From: Isurus oxyrinchus
Taxonomy: Eukaryota
Reading direction: 5' to 3'
Length of the DNA stretch: 38,839 nt
NCBI GenBank assembly: GCA_026770705.1
Contig: JANJGN010000016.1
Location: 88,350,001-88,388,839, forward strand
Each line of letters starts with the position of its first letter. The stretch's first letter is position 1. Below, one piece after another: positions 2,081 through 24,818 of the stretch. Position numbers and translations under genes: made by a program. The notes below the pieces were generated by a model that did no database searches, was not told the origin of the DNA, and saw nothing but the letters and a program-made list of their open reading frames with translations.

Positions 2081-2366
2081 GTTGTGAGGGGCAGCCTCTT
2101 TCAATGTTTGGGCCAGTCTCTCCCATGGTCCAAGCTAACAGAGCAGCCTTGCCGTGCGGGTTAGGAGAATGTCTGTGTCTGAGCTGAGAGCACAGCCTGC
2201 AGTCCAATGGGCAAAGCTGCCGCCAATCGGTCAGGTGCGGTGGGGCGGAGGAGGGTGGGGTTTTGGGCAGCCAATCAGGACACTAATCTCTGGCCACCCA
2301 AGTGGTGGACAGCACTCAGCGGGATGTGTTAAGGGGCCTTCAGACTTAACCAGGACAGGTTCTTAG

Positions 2367-2951
2367 TGTACCCATGTTAACCACGTCTCTCTCTGTCTCA
2401 TCCTGCAGGAGGAGTACATCAGGAGCATGGATCATATACATATAGCTTATATGTCTGGTTAAATATAGACATGCAGATTGCAGCAGCTTATACATTTTTA
2501 TACCCAAACTAGGATCTAAACGCACACCCACTAGGTTTCTCTGCCACTCCCTGAGTGGTCACAGAATATAAAAGCTAATCCCCGAAAAGGAGAGCTGACG
2601 CTGGCCAGGCTTTCCGTTCTCTCTCTCTTTCACTGTCATCTCTACGTTGCTGACGTAGGTTCTTCCATTTCCGCGATGGTTGGTCTCCGGAGTCTTTGCT
2701 GGCTCCAGGCTCCAGATTCTCCATTCTTATTCTGCATCTTATCCCTCCAAGCTGTGCTGTCTCTCTCTCCCGTTGCTTTAGGCTTGCTCGCCTAGTCTGT
2801 GCTTCTCCTTATTGGCTCTATCCCAAGGCCTTAGGTAGCATTACCTCATTACCCCTTTTCTAAATAAGGACTTGTGTCTTATCACATTTCCCTTGTTTTT
2901 CACAAAACTCAGCTAATTCAAACCAGTTCCAGCCAGCTCAGGCCTGCGACT
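2367..2951 (-). mobile_element. Possible solo LTR
   Basis: Block begins TGTACCC and ends ...GGCCTGCGAC with LTR-like composition. No partner LTR, PBS or TSD identified. Confidence 0.25.
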
Positions 2952-3747
2952 GAACTCAGGTTACTTCAGTTCAAAAGGTTTTTGCCTGTGTCAGCAGTTC
3001 GGCTACAGCCCCTGGCCAACACTTGGTTTCTGTCGACGTTGACAAAATTCTGGCCTTTGCAAAAATGGCGTCTGTGATTCCTGGATACATTTGTGGGCGG
3101 ACTCTTGGGAGGTGCCACTGGGATCCTCAGTGGAGCCCTGGAAGGAACCACTGCCTTAGAAGTTTTACTTTCACAGCCACTGGCAATGGATGCCCTTCCA
3201 GTCCCCGTGGCACCAAATCCTGCAGAACGGGGCAAATGTCAGTCACCAGATGCCAGGACATGTGGAGGCGTCTGTGACACAGGGTCTCACTCATCTGCAG
3301 ATAACACATGTGATGTCTATACGCCCTGGGTCCAGCAAGATGCCTGCAAACTACTGCTCCCTGAGGATCATCCTCTAAACTAGGGGAACAATCATCGCCA
3401 CTTTGAGGGGTCAGTGTTGCTTAAATGGGCATCATTGCTTCACTTTCCTGACTCTCCACATGACAACTGAACAGCTGCTAACCTGTCTCTGCTGTGACTC
3501 TCTCCTCAGTTTGGAACCATCAATTCAGTTGGCTGGCCCTTTAGTGCCCTCCCTACCCCCACCCCCTCAGTCATGTGTCTCAGTGCAGCCTTCCCCAGTC
3601 ATTGTCCCCAATGGAGCCTTTACCCTGCAGCCCCTTCCCTTCCCTCAGTCCTGTCTGGCGCCTCCCCCAATGGATCCCTTGTCCTGCAGCACAGTAACAG
3701 TGCCCCCCTCCCTCCCCCCTTAACCCTGCTGTCGTACCTGCTTTGAG

Positions 3748-4810
3748 ACAGAGAAACATAGAAAATAGGAGCAGGAGCAGGTCATTCAGTCCTTCCACTC
3801 TGCTCCACCATTCAATATGACCATAACTGACCCTTTATCTCAACACCATTCTCCTGCTCTCTCTCCATACCCCCTGATACCTTTAGAGTCCAGAAATCTA
3901 TCTATTTCCTTCTTAAATATATTCGGTGACTTGGCCCCCACAGCCTCTGTGGTGGAGAATTCCACAGGTTCACCAGCCTCTGAGTGAAGCAGTTTCTCCT
4001 CATCTCAGTCCTAAATGGTCTACCCTGTATCCTGAGATTGTGACCCCTTGTTCTAGACTCCCCTCCCCAGAGAGAGGAAACATCATCCCTGCGCCCAGTC
4101 TGTCCAGCCCTGTCAGAATTTTATACGTTTCAATGAAATCTCCTCTCATTCTTCTAATCTCCAGTGAATACAGGCCTAGTCGGCCCAATCTCTCCTCATA
4201 CAACAATCCTGCCATCCCAGGAATCAGTCTGGTGAACCTTTGCTGCACTCCCTTTGTGGCAAGTATATCCTTTCTTAGTTAAGGAAACCAGAACTGCACA
4301 TGATACTCCAGGTGTGGTCTCACCAAGGCCCTGTACAGCTGCAGTAAGACATCCTTGCTCATGTACTCTTGTCCTCTCACAAGGAAGGCCAACACACTAT
4401 TTGCCTTTTCACCTGCTTGCTGCACCTGCATGGCTTGCTTTCAGTGATTGGTGTACAAGGACACCCAGGTCCCTTTGTACATCAACATTTCCCAATCTAT
4501 CACCATTTAAATAATACTCTGCCATTCTGTTTGTCCTGCTGAAGTGGATAACTTCACACTTACCCACGTTACACTGCACCTGCCATGTATTTGTCCACTC
4601 ACTCAACCCGTCCAAATCACCTTGAAGCCTCTTAACACCCTCCTCATCGCTCACAATCCCATCAAGTTTCATGTTGTCAGCAAACTTGGGAATATTACAT
4701 TTGGGTTCCCTCATCCAAAGCATTGATATATATAGTGAATAGCTGGGGCCCAAGCACTGATCCCTGCCAAACCCCACTAGTCACCGCCTGCCACTCCGAA
4801 AAAGACCCAG
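3748..4810 (-). mobile_element. CR1-type LINE, 5'-truncated (RT C-terminus plus 3' tail)
   Basis: ORF fragments KFADNMKL..LQGDLDGLSEW..WQVQCNVGKCEVIHF and QRFTRLIPGM..YEERLGRLGLYSLE.RRMRGD. The tail reads AGAAACATAGAAAATAGGAGCAGGAG on +. Confidence 0.9.
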
Positions 4811-5569
4811 AAGAGACCCTCCTGAAGCTGATGTGGTGCAGCCTGTGAAGTCTGGCACTGACCCTGGTGAGCTCACCTCGGGGTCAGGAATGAAGTGCAG
4901 CTTTCCAGCTCCACCTGGTTTCAATCCTGTTGTGAAACACGTGGTTCTAACCGCACGCTGATGTGGGCTCTCATCCAGGGTGGAGGGATGATTCCGGCGA
5001 GCAGGAGTCATAATGAGATGCTGATTTATGCTAATGACATTCACAATCCTCAGCGGTGGGAAACGTGTCCCACCATTGAGGGCTGAAGCGAACAATCACT
5101 TCCTCGTTTTACATGGTGGTAAAGGCGGTTTTGGGCCTTCTGGTCAGATTGAGTCCTCGCTCCCACCATGACACCCGCCACCACTGGGAGCAGGAAATCC
5201 CGGCCAAAGACTTTGGAGAGGAAAGGGAGGTTAGTGATGGGGTGGGAGTTTACAAGGACTGATTGGTTGAGTGTGGGTTTGTTGAGGAGATGGTGATGAT
5301 GGTGATTTTGAGAGCGAGGGGGTCAGTACGTGTGGAGGGGCTGACCCTCTGGTACCTGAACTCTCCCAGTGAAGCTTTCCCTCTGTTACTTTATCTCTCT
5401 TGTCATGGCACCCAGTTGGAATCTGAATAATTCCAATGGATTTCCCTGTATTTCCTTGTTTTACAGATTATTCCAAACAGATTACCCTCTGAGTAAATAA
5501 TATTTACCTGATCAATGTTGTAATTTTACTCTCACTGCTTTCCATTAACGTCATCAGCTTTTCCCACAT

Positions 5570-5820
5570 AATCAGAGAATCACACAGCACTGAAGGAGGC
5601 CATTCAGCCCCTCGGGTCTGTTCTAGCTCTTTGAAAGAGTGATCCAATTAGATCCACTGCCCTTCTCTTTCCCCATTGGCCTGTAATTTCTCCCTTTGAG
5701 TTTTTCTCCAATTGCCTTTTGCAAGTTATTCTTGAATCAGCTTCCAACGCCCTTCCAGACAGTGAGTTCCAGATCAGGACAATGTTAATGACATTCAATC
5801 TGTGACCTCTCCTGTCACTG
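5570..5820 (-). mobile_element. CR1-type LINE 3' end fragment
   Basis: ACAGCACTGAAGGAGGCCATTCAGCCC tail; IWNSL...CKRQL motif in ORF 5604-5798. Confidence 0.7.
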
Positions 5821-5879
5821 GAAACAGTTTCTCCCGATTTACTTTATTAAAATTCCTCATAATTTAGGCAATTTGTATC

Positions 5880-6578
5880 CTGGGATGGGAAATGAGGTAC
5901 AGTAAAGTGAGGGAGTCTGGGAGACAAACACAGGAAGACATTAATAAACTTGCAGAATGGGCACTGAATTGGGGAATAACTTTCAACATTGAGAAGACAG
6001 AAGCTTTACATTTTGCTTGGAAGATTAGGGAGGAGACCAACTTCTTGCAAATAAGTCTCTAAATGTGGTCAAGAAACAGAGGGATCTGAGAGTGCAGACA
6101 CATAAATCCCTAAGAACTGTGAGACAGGTTAGTAAAGTCACAAAAGAATCATATCAAGCACTCGGGTCTATTTCTAAAGGGATAGAATTGAAACACAGAG
6201 GGTTTATGTGAAACAGGTATAGAATCTTGGTTAGACCACACTTGACGCACTGTTTCTGGTCTCCATATTAAGAAAAGGATACAGAGACACTGGAGAAGGT
6301 AGAAAAGTGAGTGACACAGTGAGGATAGAGTCATCAGTCTGGGGTCCTCTTCTCTGGGAATGAAATGACTGAGAGGGGAGCTGACTGATGTCTTTAAGGT
6401 GATGAAGGGATTTGATAGGGTGATGTAGAGAAGATGCTTCCAATTGTGGGTGGGACCTAAACTACCAGGCGTGAATAAAAGATAAACACCAAAAATCTAA
6501 TTGGGAATTCAGGAGGAACATTGTCACTCAGAGAGTGGTTAGAACGTGGAACTCACTGTCACTGATAAACAAGAGATA
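5880..6578 (+). mobile_element. Degenerate CR1-type LINE ORF2 3' region
   Basis: Remnants read as ERDLRV, LVRPHL..FWSPY, TQRVVRTWNSL. Confidence 0.75.
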
Positions 6579-6583
6579 GTATG

Positions 6584-7670
6584 TGTTATAGAGTTGATCA
6601 TCAGGCAACTTTTCTTGGTGGAAACATTTGACTTTATTTACAAGAGGACAGCAGCAACTACACATCTGCATCAAGCTCCATTACTACAGAAGTCCTCTCT
6701 CTCTCTCTCTGTGTGGAGGTTGCCTGAAATGCTCACACATTGGTTTACACAGTTCATGTGATCTTACAGTACACGGTTATTCTTAAAGCTACAGTCCAAC
6801 ATTTCCCAAAACTATAACCACGACGTTCCTCCCCCATTAACTTTTCTGTACATTTTGTATTTACAAGGACATTTATCTCATGACATTACAATATTTACAC
6901 AGGTCATAAAATTACAAGTTCAGCCTTTCAGGTGGTTTCCTGATCCGTGTGGAACATCACAGCTCCACGCCTTCAGATTCTTTTGCAGGAACCACGTCCT
7001 CTGGAACCGCATTAATATCAGGTACCTCATTAGACACATGCAGTTCAGTGTCTCCCACTCCGACAGAGACATCGGCCATGTCTGCCCTAGGTTGAGCAAA
7101 TTCAACAGGAACCAGTGGTTCGGTAATGACTATCGGTGGAACAATGTCCTATTGTTTTATTTCTCCTATTACAGTGGTAAATTGCAGGTTTTTTCTCCTA
7201 CAAGTACTCAGGAGGATCGCTCTCCTCTTCTCTTCCTCTGTGATTTTGTTTGCTTGAAAGAAGAACTCAAGACATTATATATATTGTGACCAATCATCAG
7301 TGGCTGCTTCAAAGGGATCGATTCTGAAAAACTGGCATTTTGAATGCGTATACCTGCTGTTATTTCAAACAAACATAGAGATTCACAATCGCTGGGTGAG
7401 GTACAGAACCAATTCTGATTTATCCTCATCGCCAGTTTGTTATAGAGTTGATCTTCAGGCAACTTTCCTTCATGGAAACATTTGACTTTGTTTACGGGAC
7501 AGAGCAGCAGCAAATACCTGTGAGCATCCAACAGCACGACGACAGAAGTACTCTCTCTGTACACGTTCCCATGCTGCTAGCACACTGGTTTAGAGAGATC
7601 AGGTGATCTTATAGCATGGGATTATTCTTATAGCTGCAGTCCAACAGTCACCAAATTTATCATCACCAAA
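6584..7670 (-). mobile_element. Internally deleted Ty3/Gypsy LTR retrotransposon (LTRs ~6584-6825 and ~7438-7670)
   Basis: Two diverged direct repeats both start TGTTATAGAGTTGATC. PBS TGGCGATGAGGAT (7422-7434, -). PPT GGGGGAGGAA (6826-6835, -). Gag N-terminus MPVF.RIDPFE..DDWSQYI..LEFFFQANKI....RRAILLSTC from 7338. Integrase-type C-terminus STRIRKPPERLNL* ends at 6912. Flanks GTATG/GCATG may be a TSD. Confidence 0.85.
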
Positions 7671-7951
7671 GCATGAGTGTAAATTCACAGCTTTTATTAC
7701 TGTTTGTTTGGATGGAAAAAAATGCAAAACAAAGTTAATTATTGTTTAGTCAATCCCGTCTGTTTTTAATTGTACAATATTTAAGAACAACTCACTCCCT
7801 GGGGAGCTCATGTAAATACTGAGCCCCTCCTGGAGCCCAATGTTATGGGAGGGAAACAAAGGAAATTCAGAACGAGTGGTTCGAGAGAGAAACTTGGCAG
7901 CTTTAATTCAGAGGGGCATGATCTCACAATGTTGTTAGGTGCTGAAAACAA

Positions 7952-10900
7952 AAATACTGCTCCCTGCTCCCTCCAATACTGCCAGATCGCTACTCTCTCT
8001 AACACTGCCAGATTGCTACTCTCTCCAACTCTACCAACTCCCTGCACTCTCCAATAATCCCAACTCCCTGTTCCCTCGAAAACTACCAACCCAATGCAGT
8101 CTCCAATAATGACAGCTCCATCTCTCCCCAATACCGCCAGCTTCCTGCTCCCTCCATTACTGCCTGCTTGCTGCTCCCTCAAATACTGCTGACTCCCTAG
8201 CCCCTCTAGTAATGTCAGCTTCCTGTTCCTTTTAATACAGCCACTTCCCTGCTCCCTCCAATATTGCCAGCTACCTGCTCCCTCAAACACTGCCAGCTTC
8301 CTACTCCCTCTGATACTGCCAGCTCCCTGCTCCCTCAAAAAGTGCCAGCTCCCTGCACCCTCCAATACTGCCAGCTCCCTGCTCCCTCCAATGCTGCCAG
8401 CTCACTACTCTCTCCAATACTGCCAGATACCTGCTGTCTCCAATAATGCCAGCCCCTTGCTCCATCCATAACTGCCAGTTCCCTGCTCCCTCCAATACTG
8501 CCACCACCAAGCTCCCTCTAATACTGCCAGCTTCCCTTCCCTCCAATACTGCCAGCTCCCTGCTCCCTCCAATACTTCTAGCACCCTGCTCCCTACAATA
8601 CTGCCATCTCCCTGCTCTGTCCAATTATGCCAGATCCTTGTTCCTTCCGTTAATACCAGCTCCATGCATTCTCCAATACTGCCAGCTCCCTGCACCATCC
8701 AATACTGCCAGCTCACTGCTCAATAAAATACTACCACCTCCCTTCTCCCTCCAATACTGCCACCTCCCTTCTCCCTCCAATACTGACAGCTCCCTGCTCC
8801 CTGCACCTTCCAAAATTGCCAGCTCCTTGCTCTCTCCAATAATGACACATCGCTGCTCTCTCCAATACTACCAGGACACAAGTTCCTCCAACATTGCCAG
8901 CTCCCTGCTCCCTCCACTACTGGCTGCTCGTTGCACACTCCAATACTGCCAAATCCCTAGTCTCTGTAATATTGCCAGCTTCTTGGCCCCTCTAATAAAT
9001 CAAGTTCCTACTCTCTCCAATACTCCATTCTCCCTGCTCCATCTAAAAATTCCAGCTCCCTGCTACATCCCTGCACCCTCCAATACTGCCAGCTCCCAGC
9101 TCGCTCCAAAACTGCTAGCTCCCGGTTCCCTCTTATAATGCCAGTTTCCTGCTCCCTCCAATAAAGCAAGTTACTGCTCTCTCCAATACTGCCACCTCCC
9201 TGCTCTCCGCTATACTCCTCTTCAACACTGTAAGCTCTCTGCACCCTCCAATACTGCCAGCTCCCTGCTCCCTCCAATACTGCCTGCTCCCTGCTCCCTC
9301 CAATACTGCCAGCTCCCTGCTCCCTCCAATACTGCCAGCTCACTACTCTCTCCAATACTGCCAGCTCACTGCTCCCTTCAATACTGCCAGCTCACTGCTC
9401 TCTCCAATAATGCCAGCTCCCTGCACCCTCCAATACTGCCAGCTCCCTGCACCCTCCAATGCTGTCAGCTCACTGATCTCTCCAATACTGCCAGCTCCCT
9501 GCACCCTCCAATACTGCCAGTTCACTGCTCCCTCCAATGCTGCCAGCTCCCTGCTCCCTCCAATACTGCCAGCGCCCTGCTCCCTCCAGTGCTGCCAGCT
9601 CCCTGCTCCCTCCACTATGCCAGCTGCCTGTTCCCTCCAATACTGCCAGCTCCCTGCTCCCTCCAGTACTGCCAGCTCCCTGCTCCCTCCACTACGCCAG
9701 CTCCCTGCTCTCCCCAATACTGCCAGTTCCATGCACCCTCCAATAGTTCCAACTCCCTGTTCCCTAAAACACTACCAGCTCCCTGCAACCTCCAATACTG
9801 CCAGCTTAATGCTCCCTCCATAACTTCCATTCCCTATCTCAGTTCAATAATGCAGATCCTTGTTCCCTCCGTTACTGCCAGCTCCCTGCTCCCTGCAATA
9901 CTGCCAGCTCCCAACTCCCTCCAATGTTGCCAGCTCCTCGCTCTCTCCAATACTGCCAGCTTCCCATCCCTCCAATACTTCCAGCACCCTGCTCCCTACA
10001 ATACTGCCGTCCCCCTGCTCTATCCAATTATGCCAGATCCTTGTTCCTTCCGTTAATACCAGCTCCATGCATTCTCCAATACTGCCAGCGCCCTGCACCA
10101 TTCAATACTGCCAGCTCACTGCTCAATAAAATACTACCACCTCCCTTCTCCCTCCAATACTGCCACATCCCTTCTCCCACCAATACTGACAGCTCCCTGC
10201 ACCTTCCAAAATTGCCAACTCCTTGCTCTCCCAAATAATGACTCTCTCTCCAATACTACCAGGACACAAGTGCTTCCAACATTGCCAGCTCCCTGCTCCC
10301 TCCACTACTGGCTGCTCGTTGCACACTCCAATACTGCCAAATCCCTAGTCTCTGTAATATTGCCAGCTTCTTGGCCCCTCTAATAAATCAAGTTCCTGCT
10401 CTCTCCAATACTCCATTCTCCCTGCTCCATCTAAAAATTCCAGCTCCCTGCTACATCCCTGCACCCTCCAATACTGCCAGCTCCCAGCTCGCTCCAAAAC
10501 TGCTAGCTCCCGGTTCCCTCTTATAATGCCAGCTTCCTGCTCCCTCCAATAAAGCAAGTTACTGCTCTCTCCAATACTGCCACCTCCCTGCTCTCCGCTA
10601 TACTCCCCTTCAACACTGTAAGCTCTCTGCATCCTCCAATATTGCCAGCCCCCTGCTCCCTCCAATAATGCTTCTTCCCTGTTTTATCCAATACTGCCAG
10701 CTCCCTGCTCGCTCCAATAATGCCAGCTCCCTGCTCACTCCAAAAATTCCTGCTCCACGCTCACTCCAATAATGCCTGCCCCCTGTTCCCTCCAATACAG
10801 CCAATTCCCTGCTCCCTCCAATGCTGCCAACTCCCTGCACCGTCCAATACTGCCAGCTGCTGGCTCGCGCCAATAGTGCCAGCCCCCTGCTCCCTCCAAT

Positions 10901-13900
10901 AATGCTTCTTCCCTGTTTTATCCAATACTGCCAGCTGCCTGCTTTCTCCATAATCCCATCCCCACCTCTTCTCAATAATGCCAGACCTTTGTTCTCTTCA
11001 TTCCTGCCAAGCTCCCTGCTCCCTCAAATACTGCTAGCTCCCTGCTCGCTCCAATAATATCCGCTCCCTGCTCCCTCAAATACTGCCAGCTCCCTGCTCC
11101 CCCCAATACTGCCAGCTCCCTGCTCCCCCCAATACTGCCAGCTCCCTGCTCCCCCCAATACTGCCAGCTCCCTGCTCCCCCCAATACTACCAGCACACTG
11201 ATCCCTCCACTCCTGGCAGTGCCCTGCTCCCTCCAATACTACCAGCTCCCTGCTCCCCCAATACTGCCAGCACATTGATCCCTCCCCTCCTGGCAGTGCC
11301 CTGCTCCCTCCAATACTACCAGCTCACTGCTCCCCCCAATACTACCAGCTCACTGCTCTCTCCAATGCTGCCAGATTGCTACTCTCTCCATGATGCCAGC
11401 TCCCTGCTCTCTCTAAGATTAACCAGCTCCCTGCTCCTTCCAATACTGCCAGCTCCCTGAAAACCTCCAAACAACCAGCTCCCTCCAATACTGCCAGCTC
11501 ACTGCTCTCTCGAATACCGACACTTCCCTGCTCCCTCCAATACTGCCAGCTCCCTGCTCACTACACTTCTGCCAGCTCCCTAGTCTCTGCTATGTTGCCA
11601 GCTCCATGGCCCCTCTAATAAATCCAGTTCCTGCTCTCTCCAAAACTGCACTCTCCCTGCTCCATCTAAAAATTCCAGCTCCCTGCTACATCCAATATTG
11701 GAAGCTCCCTCCAATAATGCTTCTTCCCTGTTGTCTCCAATACTGCCAGCTCCCTGCTCGCTCCAATAATGCCAGCTATCTATTTACTCAAAAAGTGCCA
11801 GTCCCCTGTTCCCTCCAATACTGCCAGCTCCCTGCTCCCTCCAATGCCAGCTATCTATTTACTCAAAAAGTGCCAGTCCCCTGTTCCCTCCAATACTGCC
11901 AGCTCCCTGCTCCCTCCAATAATGCCAGCTATCTATTTACTCAAAAAGTGCCAGTCCCCTGTTCCCTCCAATAATGCCGGCTCCATGCTCTCTCCAAAAA
12001 TTCCTGCTCCCTGCTCACTCCAAAAATACCTGCCCCCTGTTCCTTCCAATACAGCCAACTCCCTGCTCCCTCCAATGCTGCCAGATCCCTGCATCCTCCA
12101 ATACTGCCAGCTCTCTGCTCTCTCCAATAATTCCTGACCCTGATCCCTCCAATAACGCCAGCTCACTGCTCACTCCAATAGTGCCAGCCCCCTATTCCCT
12201 CCAATGCTGCCAGCTTACAGGTGGCTCCAATATTGCCAGCTACCTGCTCCATCCAGTACTGCCACTTCCCTGCACCCTCAAATACTGCCAGCTTCATGCT
12301 CCCTCCAATAATACCAGTTTCCTGCTCCCTCCAATAATGAAAATTACTGCTCTCTCCAATACTGCCACCTCCCTGCTCTCTCCAAAACTGCCACCTCCCT
12401 GCTCTCTCCAATACTGCCACCTCCCTGCTCCCTGCAATACTGCCAACTCCCTGAAAACCTGCAAACAACCAGCTTCCTTCAATACTGCCAGCTCCCTGCT
12501 CTCTTGAATGCTGCCAGCTCCCTGCTACCTCCAATACAGCCAGCAGCCTGCTCAATAAAATACTATCAACTCCCTTCTCTCTCAAATACTGCCAGCTCCC
12601 ATTTCCCTCCAATAATGCCAGCTCCCTGCTCACTGCAATGCTGCCAGCTCCCTGCTCCATCCAACCCTGCCAGGTCCCTGCACCCTGCAATATGGATAGA
12701 TCCCTACTCCCCCCAATACTGCCAGCTGCCTGCATTCTCCATAAATGCCATCCCCATCTTTGTTCAATAATGCCAGACCTATGTTCCCTCCATTCCTGAC
12801 AAGCTCCCTGCTCCCTCAAATACTGCCTGCTCCCTGCTCCCTCCAATACTGCCAGCTCACTGCTCTCCCCAATGCTGCCAAATTGCTACTCTCTCCAAAG
12901 ATGCCAGCTCCCTGCTCTCTCCAAAATTCCCACCTCTCTGCTCCTTCAAATACTGCCAGCTCCCTGAAAACCTCCAAACAACCAGCTCACTCCAATACTG
13001 CCAGCTCCCTCGTCTCTCGAATACCGACACTTCCCTGCTACCCCCAATGTTGCCAGCTCCCGGATCACTACACTTCTGCTAACTCCTTGCTCCATCCAAT
13101 AAAGCCATTGACCTGCTGAATAAAATACTGCCACCTCTCTTCTCCCTCAAATATTGCCAGATCCCTGCTCCTCCAATTCTGCCAACTCCCATCTCCCTCC
13201 AATAATGCCAGCTTCCTGCTCCCTACAATACTTCCAGCACCCTGCTCCCTACAATACTGCCATCCCCCTGCTCCATCCAATTATGCCAGATCCTTATTCC
13301 CTCCATTAATGCCAGCTCCCTGCATTCTCCAATACTGCCAGCTCCCTGCACCATCCAATACTGCCAGCGCCCTGCACCATCCAATACTGCCAGCTCTCTG
13401 CTCAATAAAATACTACCACCTCCCTTCTCCCTCCAATACTGCCACATCCCTTCTCCCTCCAATACTGCCACCTCCCTGCTCCCTGCACCTTCCAAAATTG
13501 CCAGCTCCTTGCTCTCTCCAATAATGACACATCGCTCTCTCCAATACTACCAGGACACAAGTGCTTCCAACATTGCCAGCTCCCTGCTCCCTCCACTACT
13601 GGCTGCTCGTTGCACACTCCAATACTGCCAAATCCCTAGTCTCTGTAATATTGCCAGCTTCTTGGCCCCTCTAATAAATCAAGTTCCTGCTCTCTTCAAT
13701 ACTCCATTCTCCCTGCTCCATCTAAAAATTCCAGCTCCCTGCTACATCCCTGCACCCTCCAATACTGCCAGCTCCCAGCTCCCTGCAAAACTGCCAGCTC
13801 CCAGTTCCCTCTTGTAATGCCAGCTTCCTGCTCCCTCCAATAAAGCAAGTTCCTGCTCTCTCCAATACTCCATTCTCCCTGCTCCATCTAAAAATTCCAG

Positions 13901-16900
13901 CTCCCTGCTACATCCCTGCACCCTCCAATACTGCCAGCTCCCAGCGCCCTGCAAAACTGCCAGCTCCCAGTTCCCTCTTGTAATGCCAGCTTCCTGCTCC
14001 CTCCAATAAAGCAAGTTACTGCTCTCTCCAATACTGCCACCTCCCTGCTCTCCGCTATGCTCCCCTTCAACACTGTAAGCTCTCTGCATCCTCCAATATT
14101 GCCAGCCCCCTGCTCCCTCCAATAATGCTTCTTCCCTGTTTTATCCAATATTGCCAGCTCCCTGCTCGCTCCAATAATGCCAGCTCCCTGCTCACTCCAA
14201 AAATTCCTGCTCCACGCTCACTCCAATAATGCCTGCCCCCTGTTCCCTCCAATACAGCCAATTCCCTGCTCCCTCCAATGCTGCCAACTCCCTGCACCGT
14301 CCAATACTGCCAGCTGCTGGCTCGCGCCAATAGTGCCAGCCCCCTGTTCCTTCCAATACTGCCAGTTCACAGGTGCCTCAAATACTGCCAACTACCTGCT
14401 CCCTCCAATACTGCCAGCTCCCTGCTCCCTCCAATACTGCCAGCTCCCTGCTCCATCCAAAACTGCCAGCTCTCTGCTCCCTCCAATAATACCAGTTTCC
14501 TGCTCCCTCCAATACTGCCAGCTCCTTGCTCTCTCCAATACTGCCAGCTCCCTGCTCCCTCCAATACTGCCAGCACTCTGCTCTCTCTAATACTGCCAGC
14601 TCTCTGCTCCCTCCAATACTGCCAGCTCTCTGCTCCCACCAATACTGCCAGCTCCTGGCTCCCTCCAATACTGCCAGCTCCCTACTCCATCCAATACTGC
14701 CAGCTTCCTGCTCTCTCAAATACTGCCAGCACACTGCTCCCTCCCCTACTGACAGTGCTCTGTTCCTGCAACGCGGCCAGCTCACTGGTCTCCCCAATGC
14801 TGCCAGATTGCTACTCTCTCTAAAGATGCCAGCTCCCTGCACCTTCCAATACTGCCAGCTCCCTGAAAACCTCCAAATAACCAACTCCCTCCAATATTGC
14901 CTGCTCCCTGCTCTCTCCAAAATTGCCAGCTCCCTGCTCTCTCCAACACTGCCAGCTCCCTGCTCCCTCCTATACTGCCAGCTCCCTGCTCCCTCCAATA
15001 CTTCCATCTGCCTGCTCCCTCCAATACTGCCAGCTCCCTGCTCCCTGCACTTCTGCCAGCTCCCTGCTCACTCGAATACAGCCAGCAACCTGCTCAATAA
15101 ATTACTACCACCTCCCTTCTCCCTCAAATACTGCCAGATCCCTGCTCCTCCAATTCTGCCAACTCCCATCTCCCTCCAGTAATGCCAGCTTCCTGCTCCC
15201 TACAATACTTCCAGCACCCTGCTTCCTACAATACTGCCATCCCCCTGCTCCATCCAATTATGCCAGATCATTGTTCCCTCCATTAATACCAGCACCCTGC
15301 ATGCTCCAAAACTGCCAGCTCCCTGCTCAATAAAATACAACAACCTCCCTTCTCCTTCCAATACAGCCACCTCCCTTCTCCCTCCAATACTGCCAGCTCC
15401 GTGCTCACTCCAATACTGCCAACTCCCTGCTCGCTCCAATAATGCCAGCTCCCTGCTCCCTCAGATACTGCCAGCTCCGTGCTCACTCCAATACTGCCAG
15501 CTCCCTGCTCCCTCCAGTACTGCCAGCTCCCTGCTCCCTCAAATACTGCCAGTGCCCTGCTCGCTCCAATACTGCCACCTCCCTTCTCCCTCCAATACTG
15601 CCAGCTCCCTGCTCCCTCAAATACTGCCAGCTCCCTGCTCCCTCCAATAATGCCAGCTCACTGCCGACTCCACTACTGCCAACTCCCTGGTCTCTACAAT
15701 ATTGCCAGCTCCATGGTCCCTTCAATAAATCAAGTTCCTGCTCTCTTCAATACTGCACTCTTCCTGCTCTATCTAATAATTCCAGCCCCCTGCTCTTTCC
15801 AATACTGCCAGCCTCCTGCTCCCTCCAATACTGCCAGCCCCCTGCTCCCACCAATACTGCCAGGCCCGTGTTCCCTCCAATACTGCCAGCTCCCTGCTCC
15901 CTGCAATATGGATAGATTCCTACTGCCCCCAATACTGCCAGCTGCCTGCATCCTCCAATACTGCCAGCTCCCTGCTCCCTCCAACACTGCCAGCTCCCTG
16001 CTCCCTCAAATACTGCCAGCACACTGCTCCCTCCCCTACTGGCAGTGCCCTGTTCCTGCAATACTGCCAGCTCACTGGTCTCCCCAATGCTGCCAGATTG
16101 CTACTCTCTCTAAAGATGCCAGCTCCCTGCTCCTTCCAATACTGCCAGCTCCCTGAAAACCTCCAAACAACCAGCTCCCTCCAATATTGCCAGCTCCATG
16201 CTCCCTCCAATACTGCCAGCTCCCTGCTCCCTCCAATACTGCCAGCTTCCTGCTCCCTCCAATACTGCCAGCTCCCTGCTCCCTCCAATACTGCCAGCTT
16301 CCTGCTCCCTCCAATAATGCCAGCTTCCTGCTCACTCGAATACAGCCAGCGATCTGCTCAATAAATTACTACCACTTCCCTTCTCCCTCAAATACTGCCA
16401 GATCCCTGCTCCTCCAATTCTGCCAACTCCCATCTCCCTCCAATAATGCCAGCTTCCTGCTCCCTACAATACTTCCAGCACCCTGCTCCCTACAATACTG
16501 CCATCCCCCTGTTCTGTCCAATTATGCCAGATCATTGTTCCCTCCGTTAATGCCAGCTCCCTGCTCCCTCCAATACTGCCAGCTCCCTGCTACCTCCAAT
16601 CCTGCCAGCTCCCTGCTCCCTCCATTACTGCCAGCTTCCTGCTCCCTGCACTTCTGCCAGCTCCCTGCTCCATCCAATAAAGCCAGTGACCAGCTCAATA
16701 AATTACTACCACCTCCCTTCTCCCTCCAATACTGCCAGCTCCCTGCTCCCTCCAATACTGTCAGCTCCCTGCTCTCTCCAATACTGTCAGATCCCTGCTC
16801 CCTCTAATATTGCCAGCTCCCTGATCCCTCCAATAATGCCAGCTCACTGCCAACTCCAATACTGCCAGCTCCCTAGTCTCTGCAATATTGCCTGCTCCAT

Positions 16901-19036
16901 GGCCACTTTAGTAAATCAAGTTCCTGCTCTCTTCAATACTGCACTCTTCCTGCTCTATCTAATAATTCCAGCCCCCTGCTCCATCCAATACTGCCAGCTC
17001 CCTGCTCCCTGCAATATGGATAGATTCCTACTGCCCCCAATACTGCCAGCTGTCTGCATCCTCCAATACTGCCAGGCCCCTGTTCCCTCCAACGCTGCCA
17101 GCTCCATGCTCCCTCCAATACTGCCAGCTCCCTGCTCTCTCAAATGCTGCCAGCTCCCTGCTCCCTGCAATATGGATAGATTCCTACTGCCCCCAATACT
17201 GCCAGCTGCCTGCATCCTCCATAAATGCCATGCCCATCTCCATTCATTAATGCCAGACCTGTGTTTCCTCCGTTCCTGACAAGTTCCCTGCTCCCTCCAA
17301 TACTGCCAGCTCCCTGCTCCCTCCAATACTGCCAGCACACTGCTCCCTCCTCTACTGGCAGTGCACTGTTCCTGCAATACTGCCAGCTCACTAGAGTCCC
17401 CAATGCCGCCAGATTGCTACTCTCGCTAAAGATGCCAGCTCCCTGCTCTCTCCAATACTGCCAGCTCCCTGAAAACCTCCAAACGACCAACTCCCTACAA
17501 TACTTCCAGCACCCTGCTACCTATAATCCTGCCATTCCCCTGTTCTGTCCAATTATGCCAGATCCTTGTTCCATCCGTTAATGCCAGCACCCTGCATGCT
17601 CCAAAACAGCCAGCACCCTGCTCAATAAAATACAACAACCTCCCTTCTCCCTCCAATACTGCGAGCTCCCTGCTTTCTCCATTACTGTCAGATCCCTGCT
17701 CCCTCTAATATTGCCAGCTCCCTGCTCCCTCCAATAATGCCAGCTCACTGCCAACTCCAATACTGCCAGCTCACTGCCAACTCCAATACTGCCAACTCCC
17801 TGGTTTCTGCAATATTGCCTGCTCCATGGCCCCTTCAATAAATCAAGTTCCTGCTCTCTTCAATACTGCACTCTTCCTGCTCTATCTAATAATTCCAGCC
17901 CCCTGCTCTTTCCAATACTGCCAGCTCCATGCTCCATCCAATACTGCCTGCCCCCTGTTCCCTCCAATACTGCCAGCTCCCTTCTCCCTGCAATATGGAT
18001 AGATTCCTACTGCCCCAAATACTGCCAGCTGCCTGCATCCTCCTTAATGCCATGCCCATCTCCATTCAGTAATGCCAAACCGGTGTTCCCTCCGTTCCTG
18101 ACAAGCTCCCTGCTCCCTCCAAAACTGCCAGCTCCATGCTCGCTCCAATACTGCCAGATCCCTGCTCGCTCAGCGACTATCTGCTCCCTGCTCCCTCCAA
18201 TACTGCCAGCTCCCTGCTCCCTCCAATACTGCCAGCTCCCTGAAAACCTCCAAACAACCAGCTCCCTCCAATATTGCCAGCTCCCTGCTACGTCCAATAC
18301 TGACAGCTCTCTGCTCCCTCCAATACTGCCAGCTCCCTGCTCCATCCAATACAGCCAGCGACCAGCTCAATAAATTATTACAACGTTCCTTCTCCCTCGA
18401 ATACTGCCAGATCCCTGCTACTCCAATTCTGCCAACTCCCATCTCCCTCCAGTAATGCCAGCTTCCTGCTCCCTACAATACTTCCAGCACCCTGCTCCCT
18501 ACAATACTGCCATCCCCCTGTTCTGTCCAATTATGCCAGATCCTTGTTCCCTCCATTAATGCCAGCACCCTGCATGCTCCAAAACTGCCAGCTCCCTGCT
18601 CAATAAAATACAACAACCTCCCTTCTCCTTCCAATACTGCCACCTCCCTTCTCCCTCCAATACTGCCAGCTCCGTGCTCACTCCAATACTGCCAACTCCC
18701 TGCTCGCTCCAATAATGCCAGCTCCCTGCTCCCTCAGATACTGCCAGCTCCGTGCTCACTCCAATACTGCCAGCTCCCTGCTCCCTCCAGTACTGCCAGC
18801 TCCCTGCTCCCTCAAATACTGCCAGTGCCCTGCTCGCTCCAATACTGCCACCTCCCTTCTCCCTCCAATACTGCCAGCTCCCTGCTCCCTCCAATACTGC
18901 CAGCTCCGTGCTCGCTCCAATCCTGCCAGCTCCCTGCTCGCTCCAATACTGCCAGCTCCCTGTCCTCTGCAATACTGTCAGATCCCTGCTCCCTCTAATA
19001 TTGCCAGCTCCCTGTTCCCTCCAATAATACCAGCGA
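7952..19036. repeat. ~11 kb tandem array of a 26-bp unit (CCCTCCAATACTGCCAGCTCCCTGCT) with higher-order duplications
   Basis: The unit is visible throughout; length/26 gives roughly 425 degenerate units. Landmark variants recur at kb scale. Confidence 0.97.
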
Positions 19037-19659
19037 GCTGGATGTGAGTGTTTAATATAAGGGGGTGTTTGTCAGTATATTTTCGATGCTCTATGGTTTC
19101 TGAGCATGGTGGGAGGGGATCAGGGCTCTGTTCTTTGACGTGACGCAGTGATATCTGTCCCAGTCTCTCAGACTGTGATGCTGTTGTTCTCTGTGACTGA
19201 CGCTATGATATTGATTGTAATCTCACTCAGTGTGACACGAGGTTACATGTCTTGATCAGTGGTGAGGGAGGAGCAGACTGAACAAGGAGCTGCAATCATC
19301 AGTCACTGCCGAAATCCTTCACACAGCCCGCACACTCCGCAAACTTCTTCACTAAATATTCTTTCAGCTCCTTAATGAGAGGCCTGGAGCTGAAAAGGGA
19401 AAAAGAGAAAGACATCTTTTCGAGAGGCTCATGGACACAATGTACACTGTACATTACCCACTAATGACACTCTGTCTACATTTAACTCATTGTTTAAGCT
19501 CCAGCCCACCTCCTGTTCCCATCCATATGTTTCAGTCAAGGAGCCTGATAAGCCTCTAGCACAGGAGGAGGCCATTCAGCCCCTTGTGTCTGTGCTAGCT
19601 GTGCACTCGGATCATTCAGAACTAACCTCTCAGTTTAATGTCTGTAATGGGGAAGTGAC

Positions 19660-20700
19660 TGGAACCTGTTATTAGAGACAGAATGAGTGATAAATATGAA
19701 CTGATCAGAGAGAGTCAGCATGGATTTAAAAAGGATCAGACATCTTTAACTAACCTGGTTACATTTTTTAAGGAGGTCACTAATGTGGTAGATCAGGGAA
19801 TGTCTATTCTATTGATATGGATTTCCAGAAGACATTTGAGAAAATTCAACATGAGAGACTGTGAATAAAAATGGAAGCAGATGGAATTTGAGGAAACCTA
19901 TTGCCATGGATGAGGAACTGGTTAGGAGGCAGGAGACAGAGAGTAGGGATAATGTGTATGTGCTCCAATGAGCAAGATGTGAATAGTGATGTCCCCAGGG
20001 ATCTGTGCTGGAGCCTCAGCTTTTCACAATATTTATCAATGATTTGGATGAAGAAATAGAGAGCCATATATCCAAGATTGCTGACGACACTAAGTTAGGC
20101 GGCTTGGAGGAGGTTACAGAGATGGGGAGTGTCGAGGACTGAGAGGGATTTGAGAACAAGGATGAGAATTTTAAAATCGAGACATTGCTGGGCTGGGAGG
20201 TCAGTGAGCACAGGGGGTGATGGGTGAACGGGACTTGGTGTGAGTTCAGATCCGGGCAGCAGAGTTTGGGATGAGCTCATGTTTACCGAGTGTGGAAGGT
20301 GTGACTCCGGCCAGGGCAGCATTGGAATCGTCACGTTTCAGGGAACAAAGACATGGAGGAGATTCTCAGCAGCAGATGGTCAGAGGCAGGCCGGACTCGG
20401 GCGATGTTACTGAGGTGGAAATAGGCTCTCTTAGTGATGGAGCGGATGATGTGGTCAGAAGCTCATCTCAAGGTCAAACTGGACACCATGGCTGTGAACT
20501 GTGTGGTTCAGTGTCAGACAGACCCAGGGAGAGGGATGGAATCGGTGATGAGGGAACAGAGTTTGTGATGGGGACTGAAGACAATGGCAAATGGAGCTCA
20601 ACGTGGGGAGTGTGAAATCATCCACTTTGGACCGAAGAAAGATGGATCAGAGTAATTTGTAAATGGTGAGATGCTGGCAGCTGTGGAGGAGCAGAAAGAT
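19660..20700 (+). mobile_element. CR1-type LINE RT fragment interrupted by an antisense L2-like insert (~20100-20585)
   Basis: LIRESQHGF..SLTNLVTFF, then KIADDTKLG at ~20075-20100. It resumes at ~20585 with WQME.NV..CEIIHFG. The insert matches the L2 copy at 31700-32712 in reverse. Confidence 0.8.
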
Positions 20701-21047
20701 GAGGCCAAGGTTGTGAAGAGTCTGGTTCAGCAGCAGACAGTGCTCAGGGAGAGGGATGGAGTTTGTATCGGGAGCTGAAGACGATGGCTTTGATCTTCCC
20801 AATGTGTTTCCCAGTGAGCCTGCCTCCTCAGTCCTGACTGCTCTTAGCTGCTGTTCTTTTCACTGATTGGACAGTTATTATTACAGATTCAGACCACAGC
20901 AGAAACCCCCAGTGTAAAAAATAACTGCAAAGATTGTCCGATCGCAAGACTGAAACGTAACCAAGAGAGGAAGTGAAAGAAGGAGCTCAGAGCAGCTGGA
21001 TGTTTGTTACTGACACGGGAGAAAACTGTGAACCGTGCCCACTCCCT

Positions 21048-21180
21048 AGAATCTTACAGCACAGAAGGAGGCCATTCAGCCCATCCTGTCTGTGAGTTAC
21101 CCAGTGAGTCCCACTCCCCCTCTCTGTCCCCATAACCCAGCAAATCTTTCCTTTTCAGGTAGATCTCCAATTACCTCTTG
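21048..21180 (-). mobile_element. CR1-type 3' tail fragment
   Basis: AGAATCTTACAGCACAGAAGGAGGCCATTCAGCCC tail motif, also seen at ~5580 and ~19560. Confidence 0.65.
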
Positions 21181-21367
21181 TAGACCTGGGTCCACAGCTC
21201 GAGACTGTCCCAAACCTGGGCTCAAAATTGGCATCTCATTCATTCATTGGAAGACAAAATGCCCGGGGTGGGAAATGGAGCTCAGATCTCCAAACATTCC
21301 CTCTCCCCTCCTGAGGGACACTTCATGCTGGGATACATTTCGATGGAACCTGGGAGCACAACACGGG

Positions 21368-22210
21368 GGAGGCTGTGGGGTAGCGGCAATGTTACTGGAC
21401 CAGTAATCCAGAGGCCCAGGGTAATGCTCTGGGGTCACACCTTCAAACCCCACCCCGGCAGCTGGTGGAATTTAAATTCAATTAATAAATCCAGAATTAT
21501 AATTTAGTCTCAGTCACGGTGACCATGAAACCATTGTCGATTGATGTAAAAACCCATCTGGTTCACTAATGTCCTTTAGGGAAGGAAATCTGCTGTCCTT
21601 ACCTGGTCTGGCCTACATGTGACTCCAGACCCACAGCAATGTGGTTGACTCTTCACTGCCTCTGAAATGTCCTCCCATTTGTACCAAACCGCTATGAGGT
21701 CTAAAAGGAATGAAAGCAGATGGACCTCCCGCCATTGATCTAGACACTGGAAACGACAACAGCAAACTCAGCCCTGTCCACCCTGCAAAGTCCTCCTGAC
21801 TGACATCTAGGGATTAGTGTCAAAATTTGGAGAGCTGTCTCACAGACTAGTCAAGCAACAGCCTGACAGAGTCATCCTCACGGAATCATACCTTACAGAT
21901 AATGTCCCAGACACCACCATCACCATCCCACCAGCAGGACAGGTCCAGCACAGGTGGTGACACAGTGGTATACAGTCAGGAGGGAGTTGCCCTGGGAGTT
22001 ATCAACATCGATTCCCAACCCCATGAAGTCACATGGCAGCAGGTCAAACATGGGCAAGGAAACCTCCTGCTGATTACCACGTACTGCCCTCCCTCAGCTG
22101 GTGAAGCAGTGCCCCTCCATGTTGAACATCACTTGGAGGGAGCACTGAGAGTGGCAAAGGCACAGAATGTACTCAGTGTGGAGGACTTCAATGTGCATCA
22201 CTAAGAGCTG
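21368..22210 (+). mobile_element. tRNA-like/SINE-type head followed by an APE endonuclease remnant of a non-LTR retrotransposon
   Basis: A-box-like TGGGGTAGCGG and a degenerate B-box (TTCAAACCCC), then LVKQQPD.VILTESYL...DR...GG..VVY...TTYCPPS...EDFNVHH (ORF 21902-22204). Confidence 0.75.
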
Positions 22211-22289
22211 CTAGGTGTGTTGAAGCCTCAACTTGATAGCAGGGTATTTGACTGCAGGAGCCATCACCAATGAGAATAATTCTGTCATC

Positions 22290-22912
22290 GACAACATGAA
22301 TTTTTGTAGCGCCTTAACATAAAAAACATCCCAAGAGGTTTCAGAGAGCTGCAGTAAGAGGAACGGGGGAGGGGGTGGGAAGACTTTAGGAAGAGTTGTT
22401 GAAGACTTGGGGAAAGGATGGAGTTTGATGGAGGAGAGAGAAGCCTGGAGAGGGGGAGGGATTAAGGCAGGAATTCAGGGAGCTGGGCCTCGGCGTCTGA
22501 AGGCTCTGCTGTCAATGTTGGGATGAAGGAAGCAGCAATGGGCAGGAGAGCAGAGTCAGAAGGTGGAAGGGTGAGGGAGGGAATGTGAGTCTGCAGCAGA
22601 AACCAGAGGTAGGGAGGAGCGAGGCCATGGAGTGCATTGGAGGGCAGTGAGGTCAGGGATTAGAGGTCAGTGAGGTCAGGGGTAGTGTAGGAACAACACT
22701 TTGTGTGGGACAGGGTATGGAATGCTGCATTTTGGATCATTTGGGGTTTATGGAGCATGGAGAAGATATCGGAATAATGGAGTCAGGAGGCGAGACAAAC
22801 AGGGATAAGGGTTTCTGTGGTCAAGGGGCTGATGTAGTGTAGAGACGGACAATGTTGTGGAGATGGAAATGAGAGGCTTACGGTATGGAGAGATGTGGAG
22901 TTTGAAGTTCAG
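22290..22912 (-). mobile_element. L2-like LINE 3' region, degenerate
   Basis: Reverse of an L2-type tail (TTGTAGCGCCTT...AACATCCCAAG). GGAATTCAGGGAGCTGGGCCT mirrors the L2 at ~32600. Confidence 0.55.
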
Positions 22913-23282
22913 ATACTGGAGGCTCAATGGGAAGGAGGCCCATGTTTACTGGTCCCTATTGGAGGCTCCAGTGGGAAGGAGGCCCATGTTTACTGGTCTC
23001 TATTGGAGGCTCCAGTGGGAAGGAGGCCTATGTTTACTGATCCCTATTGGAGGCTCCAGTGGGAAGGAGGCCCATGTTTACTGGTCCCTATTGGAGGGTC
23101 CAGTGGGAAGGAGGCCCATGTTTACTGGTCCCTATTGGAGGCTCCAGTGGGAAGGAGGCCCATGTTTACTGGTCCCTATTGGAGGGTCCAGTGGGAAGGA
23201 GGCCCATGTTTACTGGTCCCTATTGGAGGGTCCAGTGGGAAGGAGGCCCATGTTTACTGGTCTCTATTGGAGGGTCCAGTGG
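22913..23282. repeat. 44-bp minisatellite, ~8 copies
   Basis: TATTGGAGGCTCCAGTGGGAAGGAGGCCCATGTTTACTGGTCCC restarts at 22957, 23001, 23046 and onward. Confidence 0.95.
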
Positions 23283-23339
23283 GACATGGACACCATGGTT
23301 GATGTTTGGGACAGTTCCTTGTTGTCAATGTGTGATTGA

Positions 23340-24345
23340 CAACTTTGAGTAAGTCACAAGCAAGGTGGATAAAGGGGAAACTGTAGATGTGGTGTACACG
23401 GAATTTTTAAATGCATTTGATAAGGTGACACATCAAACATTGCTGCATAAGATGAGAGCTCATGGGCCAGGATTTTGCTCTCGTCGGGTGAACTCGGTGG
23501 GGGTGAGAGTGGGCGTTCAGGAAGCCGACCACTGCCTGTGATTGGAGCCTGAGTGGGATTTCACACTGGCGAGCCAATTAAAGCCCTCGCAGCGTGAACC
23601 ACGTGCTACAGCGCTCAGCGCTGCCTGTGTCGGGGGTGGGAGGGAGGGGGGGTAAGCGGAGAGCTTTGTGCATGAGTGCGAGTGTGCACAGGAAAAGCTC
23701 CCTGAGGCACGGAGCGGCCTGTAAGGTAGCTAAATGTGTCGATCTCATCAAGATGGGTAGGAATGTAATTTGTTAAGAGGAGGTAGGGAGTCTGCAAAGG
23801 GATATGGACAGGTTAAGTGACAGGACAACAATTTGGCAGATGGAGCGTAATGTGTGAAAATGTGAACTAGGCAGGAAGAATACAAAAGCAGGATATTATT
23901 TAAATGGAGAGAGATCCTGCAGAACTCTGCGATCCAGAGGGATCTGGGTGTCCTGGTGCATGAATCACAAAAAGTTGGTTTGCAGATGCAGCAAGTGATT
24001 CGGAAGGCACATGGAATGTTGGAGTTTGTTGCAAGGGGAATGGAATATAAACATAAGGAAGTTTTACTGCAGCTGTACAGGGACATTGGTGAGACCACAT
24101 CTGGAGCAGTGTGTACAGTTTTGGTCTCCTTATTTGAAAAAGGATATAATTGCGTTTGAAGCAGTTGAGAGAAGGTTCATTCGGCTCACTCCTGGGATGA
24201 GGGGTTTATTTCATGAAGGCAGGTTGGACAGGTTGGGACTCCAGTCAGTGCAATGGAGAAGAATGAGAGGGGATCTTATTAAGACATATAAAATCCTGAA
24301 GGGATTTGATAGATTGGATTCCAGGAGGTTGACCCCACTTCTTAC
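23340..24345 (+). mobile_element. CR1-type LINE RT fragment with a MITE-like insert at ~23464-23725
   Basis: VDVVY.EF.NAFDKV.H; RDLGVLVH; LVRPHLEQCVQFWSPYLKKD...RRMRGDLIKTYKILKG. The insert begins GGGCCAGGATTTT, like the end at 1379. Confidence 0.85.
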
Positions 24346-24364
24346 GCGAGAGAAAAATGAGTAG

Positions 24365-24610
24365 GTGGAGGGACAAAGAAAGAGAGACAGAAAGTTAGGG
24401 AGAAAGAGAGACAAAGAGTGAGAGGGAGAGAGAGGGAAAGGAAGAGAAGGGGAGGGAGAGAGAGAGCAAACAAGGAGAGTGAGACAAAAAGAACAAGACA
24501 AGGAGACAGGCAGAACGAGAGGGAGAGAGAGACAGGGAGTGATGGACAGAGAGAGGGAGAGAGAGACAGAGAGTGATGGACAGATACTGAGAGAGGGAGG
24601 GAGAGAGTTG
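24365..24610. repeat. AG-rich low-complexity tract immediately upstream of the Ig promoter
   Basis: Direct reading. Confidence 0.85.
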
Positions 24611-24611
24611 A

Positions 24612-24709
24612 AGAGGAAGTGAAAGGTGCTGACGTGGTTCTCTCTGGGTGATACCATTTACATACTGAGGAACAGCCAGTGAGACTCTGACAGGCTGCAG
24701 CTGTATAAA
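24612..24709 (+). promoter_or_regulatory. Ig light-chain V promoter
   Basis: ETS-IRF element GGAAGTGAAA 24615-24624, TGACGTGG 24630-24637, variant octamer ATTTACAT 24656-24663, E-box CAGCTG 24698-24703, and TATAAA 24704-24709, about 60 bp before the ATG. Confidence 0.8.
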
Positions 24710-24769
24710 GCTGAGCCCAGTGAAGGGAGAGTTTATCAGTGACCAGGCACAGGGACAGGAGCAGACACC

Positions 24770-24818
24770 ATGATTTCAGCCATCCAGCTGATCTGGCCTC
24801 TGGCATTCTGCATCGCAG
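24770..24818 (+). CDS. IGKV: Ig light-chain leader exon (MISAIQLIWPLAFCIA-G)
   Basis: GACACCATG Kozak-like context, hydrophobic signal peptide, and a phase-1 GT donor at 24819 that splices in frame to the AG at 25003-25004. Confidence 0.92.

Follow-up and report, generated by a model that had tools for sequence, protein, structure and literature searches.

The subject of this report is a window of 38,839 nucleotides from the shark Isurus oxyrinchus (assembly GCA_026770705.1, contig JANJGN010000016.1, hereafter C16; C16:88,350,001-88,388,839), in which an 11-kb tandem array of a 26-bp unit stands in front of an immunoglobulin (Ig) light-chain cluster. The account that we hold to be probable, with moderate confidence, is that the array is a locus-specific minisatellite residing between head-to-head clusters, copied passively with them, which came to abut this particular cluster through a likely insertion and would be an incidental R-loop substrate, not a programmed switch (S) region. 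The repeat is real and restricted to the Ig kappa locus, probably as a passive passenger. In addition, contigs from two studies and two species point to a spliced RNA whose likely course leads from the J-C intron in antisense direction across J, V and the promoter. What is new here is this RNA, together with the junction of the likely insertion; no earlier report of this array or of antisense RNA from shark light-chain loci was found, in a search that did not cover most primary shark Ig papers and their supplements.

The array was delimited with Tandem Repeats Finder (TRF), composition and unit counts:

7959..19034, no strand: 26-bp minisatellite of about 426 degenerate units

It comprises 426 copies over 11,076 bp with 69% matches, and the TRF consensus agrees with the unit given in an earlier model-made note on the same letters (the sequence-only reading), which had also described a G-rich minus strand. 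This strand contains 42% G and GGG at 51/kb, and the GC skew of the plus strand is about -0.57 along the entire array. The same reading placed GAGCT and AGCA in most units; both motifs are present, but 'most' was overstated, as GAGCT occurs at 169 of 432 unit junctions (39%) and AGCA within 225 of 433 units, with AGCT at 205 of the 432 junctions. Compared with dinucleotide shuffles, which are a weak null for a tandem array, AGCT is enriched about twofold (217 versus 110+/-8) and WGCW, for which the sequence-only reading had proposed this comparison, only 1.13-fold (591 versus 522). GGGG (90 versus 305; 8.1/kb versus 8.6/kb elsewhere in the window) and GGGGT/GGGCT (12 versus 83) are depleted. 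When a single unit is shuffled, AGCT appears in 6.6% of cases and two or more WGCW in 2.4%. The AGCT density of 19.6/kb contrasts with 4.2/kb in the remainder of the window; it is 40% of that of synthetic S regions (4 per 80 bp; PMC4245955). Minisatellites elsewhere in the shark genome reach 28 AGCT/kb (a 59-bp one) and 13-17 (a 69-bp one), and each cluster unit contains about 10 different minisatellites.

Like mammalian Ig heavy-chain (IgH) S regions, the array is tandem, kilobases long (11,076 bp versus 1-12 kb), G-rich on one strand with G-clusters and enriched in AGCT (PMC4245955), and its 42% G falls in the R-loop-supportive range of 35-50% (PMC4245955); R-loop formation depends on orientation (PMC5485518). 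On paper, the array would be an R-loop-competent AID substrate. By position and GGGG content it is not a switch region. It lies 5.7 kb upstream of a light-chain V leader, as the sequence-only reading had measured (leader ATG at 24771, 5,737 bp past the array), and not in an intron before a CH gene; the J-C intron of the cluster has AGCT at 3.3/kb. In contrast to mammalian S regions, it is depleted in GGGG and GGGGT/GGGCT, has no dedicated promoter a few hundred bases upstream, carries its G-rich strand antisense to the adjacent gene and has paralogues that are homologous co-duplicates. Promoters appear to be tied only to V segments (PMC5192425).

A genome-wide search for the unit, allowing up to 3 mismatches, returned 585 matches, 581 of which were counted in 12 arrays at C16:85.82-88.37 Mb (420 of 422 forward and 161 of 163 reverse matches; the other 4 have no assigned location). 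The 54 exact matches, searched for separately, all lie on C16 at 85.82-88.37 Mb. A dispersed satellite or transposon-derived repeat, the first meaning of the earlier caveat that the array 'may simply be a satellite', is ruled out by the presence of 581 of 585 matches in one 2.6-Mb locus, and the enrichment at Ig clusters that this reading had asked to be mapped was borne out as restriction to the locus. The caveat stood in its other sense, that of a locus-specific minisatellite at 12 paralogous sites with shared flanks: with a 26-bp tandem unit spanning 1.2-11.1 kb at these sites, the arrays are variable number tandem repeats (VNTRs). Outside the locus, one 20-mer match was located on C8. A 28-bp minisatellite at C2:166.4 Mb has the core GGAGGGAGCAGG in common with the 26-bp unit and is without AGCT; it is possibly a distant relative. 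Fragments of kappa spacers (93-98% identity) without the 26-bp array occur at C16:92.19-92.20 Mb, 3.7 Mb from the locus.

The kappa locus (approximately 2.6-2.7 Mb) holds 25 V copies (87-100% identity), 25 C copies (96-100%; all C exons at C16 85.78-88.48 Mb) and 28 cluster heads, arranged as 13 head-to-head pairs and two extra clusters. One array is present in the spacer of each of 12 of these 13 pairs, with flanks about 98% identical between paralogous sites, and the shared flanks indicate that the Ig association exists because one ancestral array was co-duplicated with the locus. The single pair without an array, in which it was lost, has two open V exons. The remaining 11 arrays measure 1.2-5.3 kb, and copy number across the arrays ranges from 48 to 426. 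The size of the window array is unremarkable, since neighbouring minisatellites reach 44-69 kb (spacer arrays of 36-bp units of 27, 44, 64 and 69 kb, of 55-bp units up to about 17 kb and of 61-bp units of about 15 kb). At 5 mismatches the unit was not found in 20 10-kb stretches in the vicinity of other Ig constant exons, including 16 that precede putative IgH C exons (multi-C1 clusters, with V or J detected in none); nor was any AGCT-rich array longer than 750 bp found in another 20 stretches near other V genes, which form a general and not an IgH control, two V genes on C26 being translated as T-cell receptor (TCR)-like or other V domains. The unit is absent from all 40 of these stretches at other Ig-superfamily loci.

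Within the window, the array has grown by internal block duplications of 250-610 bp that are 92-96% identical, and it has only 1-6% of 24-mers in common with any sister array; the array at 87.372 Mb is a mosaic of three array families. Judged from these sequences, this growth is ordinary minisatellite turnover, in which the array would have expanded by unequal exchange. Flank distances across arrays (1-3%) are too uniform to call haplotype switching. Among seven closely related sister arrays, 107 of 1772 sites (6.0%) are variable, compared with 44/972 and 28/456 in the flanks; variable cytosines amount to 23/303 in WRC (7.6%), 23/317 in other C (7.3%) and 13/302 in SYC (4.3%), and the left flank shows the same order of the three classes. 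No germline AID footprint, in the form of a raised mutation rate or a WRC bias, was thus seen in the sister arrays. In its degenerate unit, its 48-426 copies, block duplications, inter-array exchange and similar arrays nearby, the repeat resembles GC-skewed VNTRs in segmental duplications; it differs from ordinary VNTRs in the two WGCW motifs of its unit and in that one copy stands directly behind an Ig antisense exon. By itself, the array is probably an ordinary minisatellite.

The position of the array directly at a cluster head is peculiar to the window, and its origin is recorded in the left junction of the cluster:

19030..19041, plus strand: left junction of the presumably inserted cluster, with the array end CCAGC, 3 untemplated bases GAG and the head CTGG at 19038

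The end CCAGC falls inside an AGCT, and there is no microhomology at this junction. In all other cluster heads (27/27) the match begins at exactly 19038; in front of it stands a CT/GA tract, beyond which 55-, 23- and 36-bp arrays usually follow. On the far side, the normal right flank of the array resumes from +133 at C16:88,392,449, behind the C exon of the window cluster, and is followed by the next cluster. We therefore regard as likely, from the two junctions, that a 23.4-kb copy of a cluster was inserted at the end of the array, possibly in a single event with repair by end joining; the junction structure is also compatible with a tandem duplication and a subsequent deletion. The left junction is spanned, at 18999-19073 and with 39 + 36 letters, by a 75-nt contig of a second species (run X5, organism B), so that the junction is germline and old. 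The same contig speaks against an assembly artefact, in which a repeat, collapsed or chimeric, would have been attached to the wrong cluster. Such an error would explain why 27/27 other clusters differ in front of 19038, and the full 11 kb was not seen within any single read or contig, so that the length of the array is without read support; yet the low proportion of 24-mers common with any sister (1-6%), internal duplications that are 92-96% and not fully identical, and the reciprocal junction found 23 kb away render an artefact highly improbable.

The likely insertion also bears on the proposal of the sequence-only reading that the array is a recombination platform between clusters. One cluster duplication does have its junction in the array, but junctions are no denser there than elsewhere in the cluster unit. 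A germline fragile site, at which frequent breaks in germ cells would drive the birth and loss of kappa clusters, could account for the junctions in the window, 86.451-Mb and 87.372-Mb arrays and for the mosaic structure of the last. A hand count of about 15 distinct large indels in 11.6 kb of 19038-30700 predicts, though, some 2-3 breakpoints in arrays against the 3 seen, and no junction in a 26-bp array accompanied the origin of the other extra cluster (13/14); we consider a fragile site unlikely.

Evidence for transcription towards the array comes from contigs of runs (X15-X20) that no record lists as RNA and whose RNA status was guessed by the tool, the GT-AG join described below being the argument for RNA. 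The features concerned are:

26990..27044, minus strand: upstream antisense exon as far as contigs cover it, within the J-C intron and with donor GTGGGT (29-30 letters direct, 54 in the X18 contig)
19390..26989, minus strand: antisense intron, GT-AG, 7,600 nt, spanning J, both recombination signal sequences (RSS), V, leader and promoter
19038..19389, minus strand: last antisense exon, with polypyrimidine tract and AG acceptor at 19391-19390
19051..19056, minus strand: ATTAAA, candidate poly(A) signal of the antisense RNA

Contig cover of 19038-19390 stops sharply in X15, X16, X17 and X18, whereas the DNA contigs X1 and X5 continue. In contigs of X16 (organism A, study P8) and X18 (organism B, study P10), 26990 is joined to 19389, and the letters then keep to the window sequence starting at 26991, at a distance of 211 bp 3' of J. 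On the minus strand, the 7,600 bases left out have GTGGGT at their start and a polypyrimidine tract and AG at their end (CT..AC on the plus strand), and the join occurs in the DNA of none of the 28 assembled clusters; for these two reasons we infer a spliced minus-strand RNA. X19 (flagged 'probably DNA') and X15 (which stops at 19390 with no extra letters) were not counted for splicing. The acceptor has been lost in cluster 15 only, leaving it intact in the other 27 of 28, and the donor is present in 23/23 clusters examined. Nucleotide diversity in the block 19038-19565 is 0.2-1.0% among clusters, like that of the C exon (0.3-0.7%) and below most intronic bins, which could result from selection or from gene conversion. 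The longest ATG-started frame in the two exons tested has 43 codons, and the last exon has no match in Rfam.

The sequence-only reading had noted that an S-like orientation would require antisense transcription, and the minus-strand GT-AG join, pointing into the array, is evidence of the kind it asked for. ATTAAA is present in 19 of 28 clusters (ATTACA in 5, ATTCAA in 4). X17 and X18 contigs end 5-6 nt past 19038, a weak hint that these ends mark the poly(A) site, while X16 goes 45 nt further; no poly(A) tail was seen in the antisense contigs. The RNA likely ends at the border of the array, where it would be cleaved at its poly(A) site, and the contigs that document it derive from sister clusters. 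Past this predicted end, the array follows on its G-rich strand in the window cluster only (1/28). Polymerase reading through the poly(A) signal would here, and in no other cluster, transcribe the array into G-rich RNA, which could form R-loops. X15 gave no cover over 18935-19033, and X16 holds one 92-nt array-like contig (depth 3.7) that matches none of the arrays compared exactly and is no evidence either way on transcription of the array.

G-rich pause sites act in transcription termination, and the array could be read as a terminator or insulator in which a G-rich tract behind the antisense poly(A) signal pauses RNA polymerase II. A GA tract would serve this purpose in most clusters, and here the array, having replaced it, would have been tolerated or expanded for that reason. 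In the 27 other clusters the hexamer is indeed followed by a GA tract, at most a few hundred bases long (in cluster 1 a 28-bp array cuts it off, and in cluster 17 it has 48% G), the array has 42% G on the same strand, and the terminal exon block, conserved like the C exon, is retained in three clusters without V. This account explains, on the other hand, only 1 of 12 arrays, the hexamer is mutated in 9 of 28 clusters, and the missing poly(A) tail speaks against it as well; we regard it as an unlikely explanation.

Antisense transcripts of mouse Ig loci are known that start downstream of JH (Perlot et al., via PMC9971809) or cover V regions (PMC3920468), as the shark RNA would start in the J-C intron and cover J and V; the mouse ones are described as transient, with multiple start sites. 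The shark RNA, unlike them, is spliced over 7.6 kb, its conserved terminal exon lies 5.4 kb 5' of the leader, and its splice sites are retained in almost every cluster. The like-switch repeats of the mammalian IgH 3' regulatory region (PMC6594652) are, as the array is, located outside the coding unit, 35-50% G and near a bidirectionally transcribed Ig locus. The shark arrays differ in lying 5' of light-chain clusters and in being without an S-mu-like donor; no donor S region was seen in the window cluster. Cartilaginous fish, described as being without switch regions, nevertheless recombine between heavy-chain clusters (PMC4279169). This inter-cluster 'switching' (Zhu et al. 2012, via PMC4279169) joins IgH clusters more than 100 kb apart, is thought to be AID-mediated, proceeds without S regions and swaps the C regions of heavy chains. 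The array is not found at the putative IgH loci and, because it lies 5' of V, breaks in it could delete or move whole clusters and not swap C.

A rival view is that the array is a like-switch element: antisense read-through would open R-loops, AID would break the arrays, and clusters lying between two arrays of like orientation, at a spacing of about 200 kb, would be deleted when these arrays are joined, as a light-chain form of 'locus suicide' or editing. The exclusive Ig-kappa distribution of the unit, the array's 42% G, GGG at 51/kb and AGCT at 19.6/kb, the spliced antisense RNA directed at the G-rich strand, the presence of seven consecutive arrays in one orientation and the size and G content of mammalian like-switch repeats (0.5-2 kb, 35-50% G; PMC6594652) agree with it. 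Against this, 11 of 12 arrays lie 11-145 kb past the predicted poly(A) site of the facing cluster head, behind C-rich repeats, and in mouse just 50 bp of extra promoter distance reduces class switch recombination (PMC4245955); AGCT density is 40% of that in synthetic S regions, GGGG is depleted, no germline AID footprint was seen, and the unit is absent from the 16 stretches upstream of putative IgH C exons. A like-switch element is, in our estimate, unlikely, and its full extension, in which read-through of a conserved spliced antisense germline transcript turns the spacer arrays into AID substrates and array-to-array joins delete clusters in B cells and sometimes reshuffle the germline, is more doubtful still. 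Of the AID/R-loop substrate proposed by the sequence-only reading, the composition, which is in the R-loop range, is retained, while co-duplication, distance and the missing AID footprint speak against a switch-like function. Under the preferred reading of a passively copied minisatellite, R-loop formation would be a by-product, because 11 of 12 arrays are situated that far away and behind C-rich repeats.

Several observations weigh against this preferred reading. The array was kept in 12 of 13 pairs, and no other of the 10 tandem or simple repeat types measured in the cluster unit combines high G skew with high AGCT. Transitions in the window array are somewhat more frequent in WRC than in SYC (0.080 versus 0.059; other C 0.109). 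The closer an array lies to the facing cluster head, the longer it tends to be (Spearman -0.85 between length and distance, n=12; -0.81 without the window copy), a trend that fits transcription-linked expansion, although the copies compared are not independent. A break inside AGCT, as in the window, has a chance of about 6% per break, and non-homologous junctions occur in 3 of 12 arrays (window; 86.451 and 87.372 Mb). As regards transcription, the antisense contigs carry variants of sister clusters and the canonical upstream sequence, not that of the window cluster, and X17 (organism B) departs at 19391 into a different 139-nt end that is absent from the window and from the genome searched. 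The window cluster can be told from its sisters by the alleles 19042A and 19189C.

These results bear on two questions (PMC4279169): by what means a shark opens one out of dozens of near-identical light-chain clusters, mutates it and silences it, and in what way AID-type recombination worked before there were switch regions. The spliced antisense RNA over V-J gives a tangible target, to which primers can already be designed, for studying cluster accessibility and convergent transcription. The window cluster, the only one of 28 with the predicted end of this RNA directly on an S-like G-rich array, is a natural experiment, with its sisters as the comparison for R-loops, mutation and deletion. 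If AID acted from array to array, this would amount to a switch-like apparatus in animals described as having no switch regions.

The remaining features of the window are those of the light-chain cluster 3' of the array and of the spacer on its other side:

24656..24818, plus strand: octamer-like ATTTACAT and leader exon, ATG at 24771, followed by a 186-bp leader intron
25005..25330, plus strand: V exon (open, 25005-25302) and RSS with 12-bp spacer
26705..26778, plus strand: RSS with 23-bp spacer and J (FGKGTKLRL; J at 26744-26778)
29734..30062, plus strand: C exon (open)
386..7958, no strand: left spacer, about 98% as in paralogous arrays, leading to the opposite-strand partner cluster
1..385, no strand: end of the 64-kb array of 36-bp units (C16:88,286,337-88,350,385) of the partner cluster

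An intact split V-J-C cluster with V, J and C open and both RSS in place is consistent with the shark light-chain cluster recognised by the sequence-only reading. We take ATTTACAT, upstream of the leader, to be an octamer-like motif, and the combination of a 12-RSS on V with a 23-RSS on J to be a kappa trait. A split V-J-C organisation with these signals, a 186-bp leader intron and many copies are found together, and a search of PDB gave generic Ig constant matches only. Since its leader intron equals that of nurse shark NS4 (kappa; 186 bp, PMC2193156), the cluster is likely shark Ig kappa (NS4, type III).

The V-J spacer (25336-26683) is filled by 61-bp and 45-bp minisatellites of variable copy number, because of which the distance between the RSS differs among clusters; from the start of V to the antisense donor it is 1.1-6.6 kb across clusters. 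Cluster heads at C16:86,227,108, 86,461,836 and 86,705,022 have neither V nor J, two of them are also without C in 20 kb and one has C, and the antisense terminal exon is present in all three. No CTCF-core or kappaB motifs were found. In the left spacer, a GC-box-rich repeat (GGGGCGGGGC) at 1840-1997, also present mid-spacer in sister clusters, is possibly a promoter-like island. At C26:29.59 Mb, in a multi-copy V-C family, a 59-bp minisatellite with AGCT at 28/kb separates a TCR-like V from a C1 exon.

Other repeats of the locus deserve mention. The 55-bp array, with three CACGTG per unit (presumably an E-box) and up to about 17 kb, is found in most spacers and is deleted before the window cluster and the next. 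Arrays of 36-bp units stand upstream of kappa clusters at C16:88,286,337-88,350,385 (64 kb), 86,925,919-86,994,929 (69 kb) and 88,415,800-88,459,628 (44 kb), and another at C16 86.78 Mb switches orientation internally. At 33182-35616, 3 kb behind C, a 28-bp array has 49% G on the minus strand, GGGG at 34/kb and the highest G4Hunter score of the cluster unit; many of its units read CAGGTAAGT, which we take to be a 5' splice-site consensus, and a 308-bp piece of it stands 74 bp upstream of the head of cluster 1.

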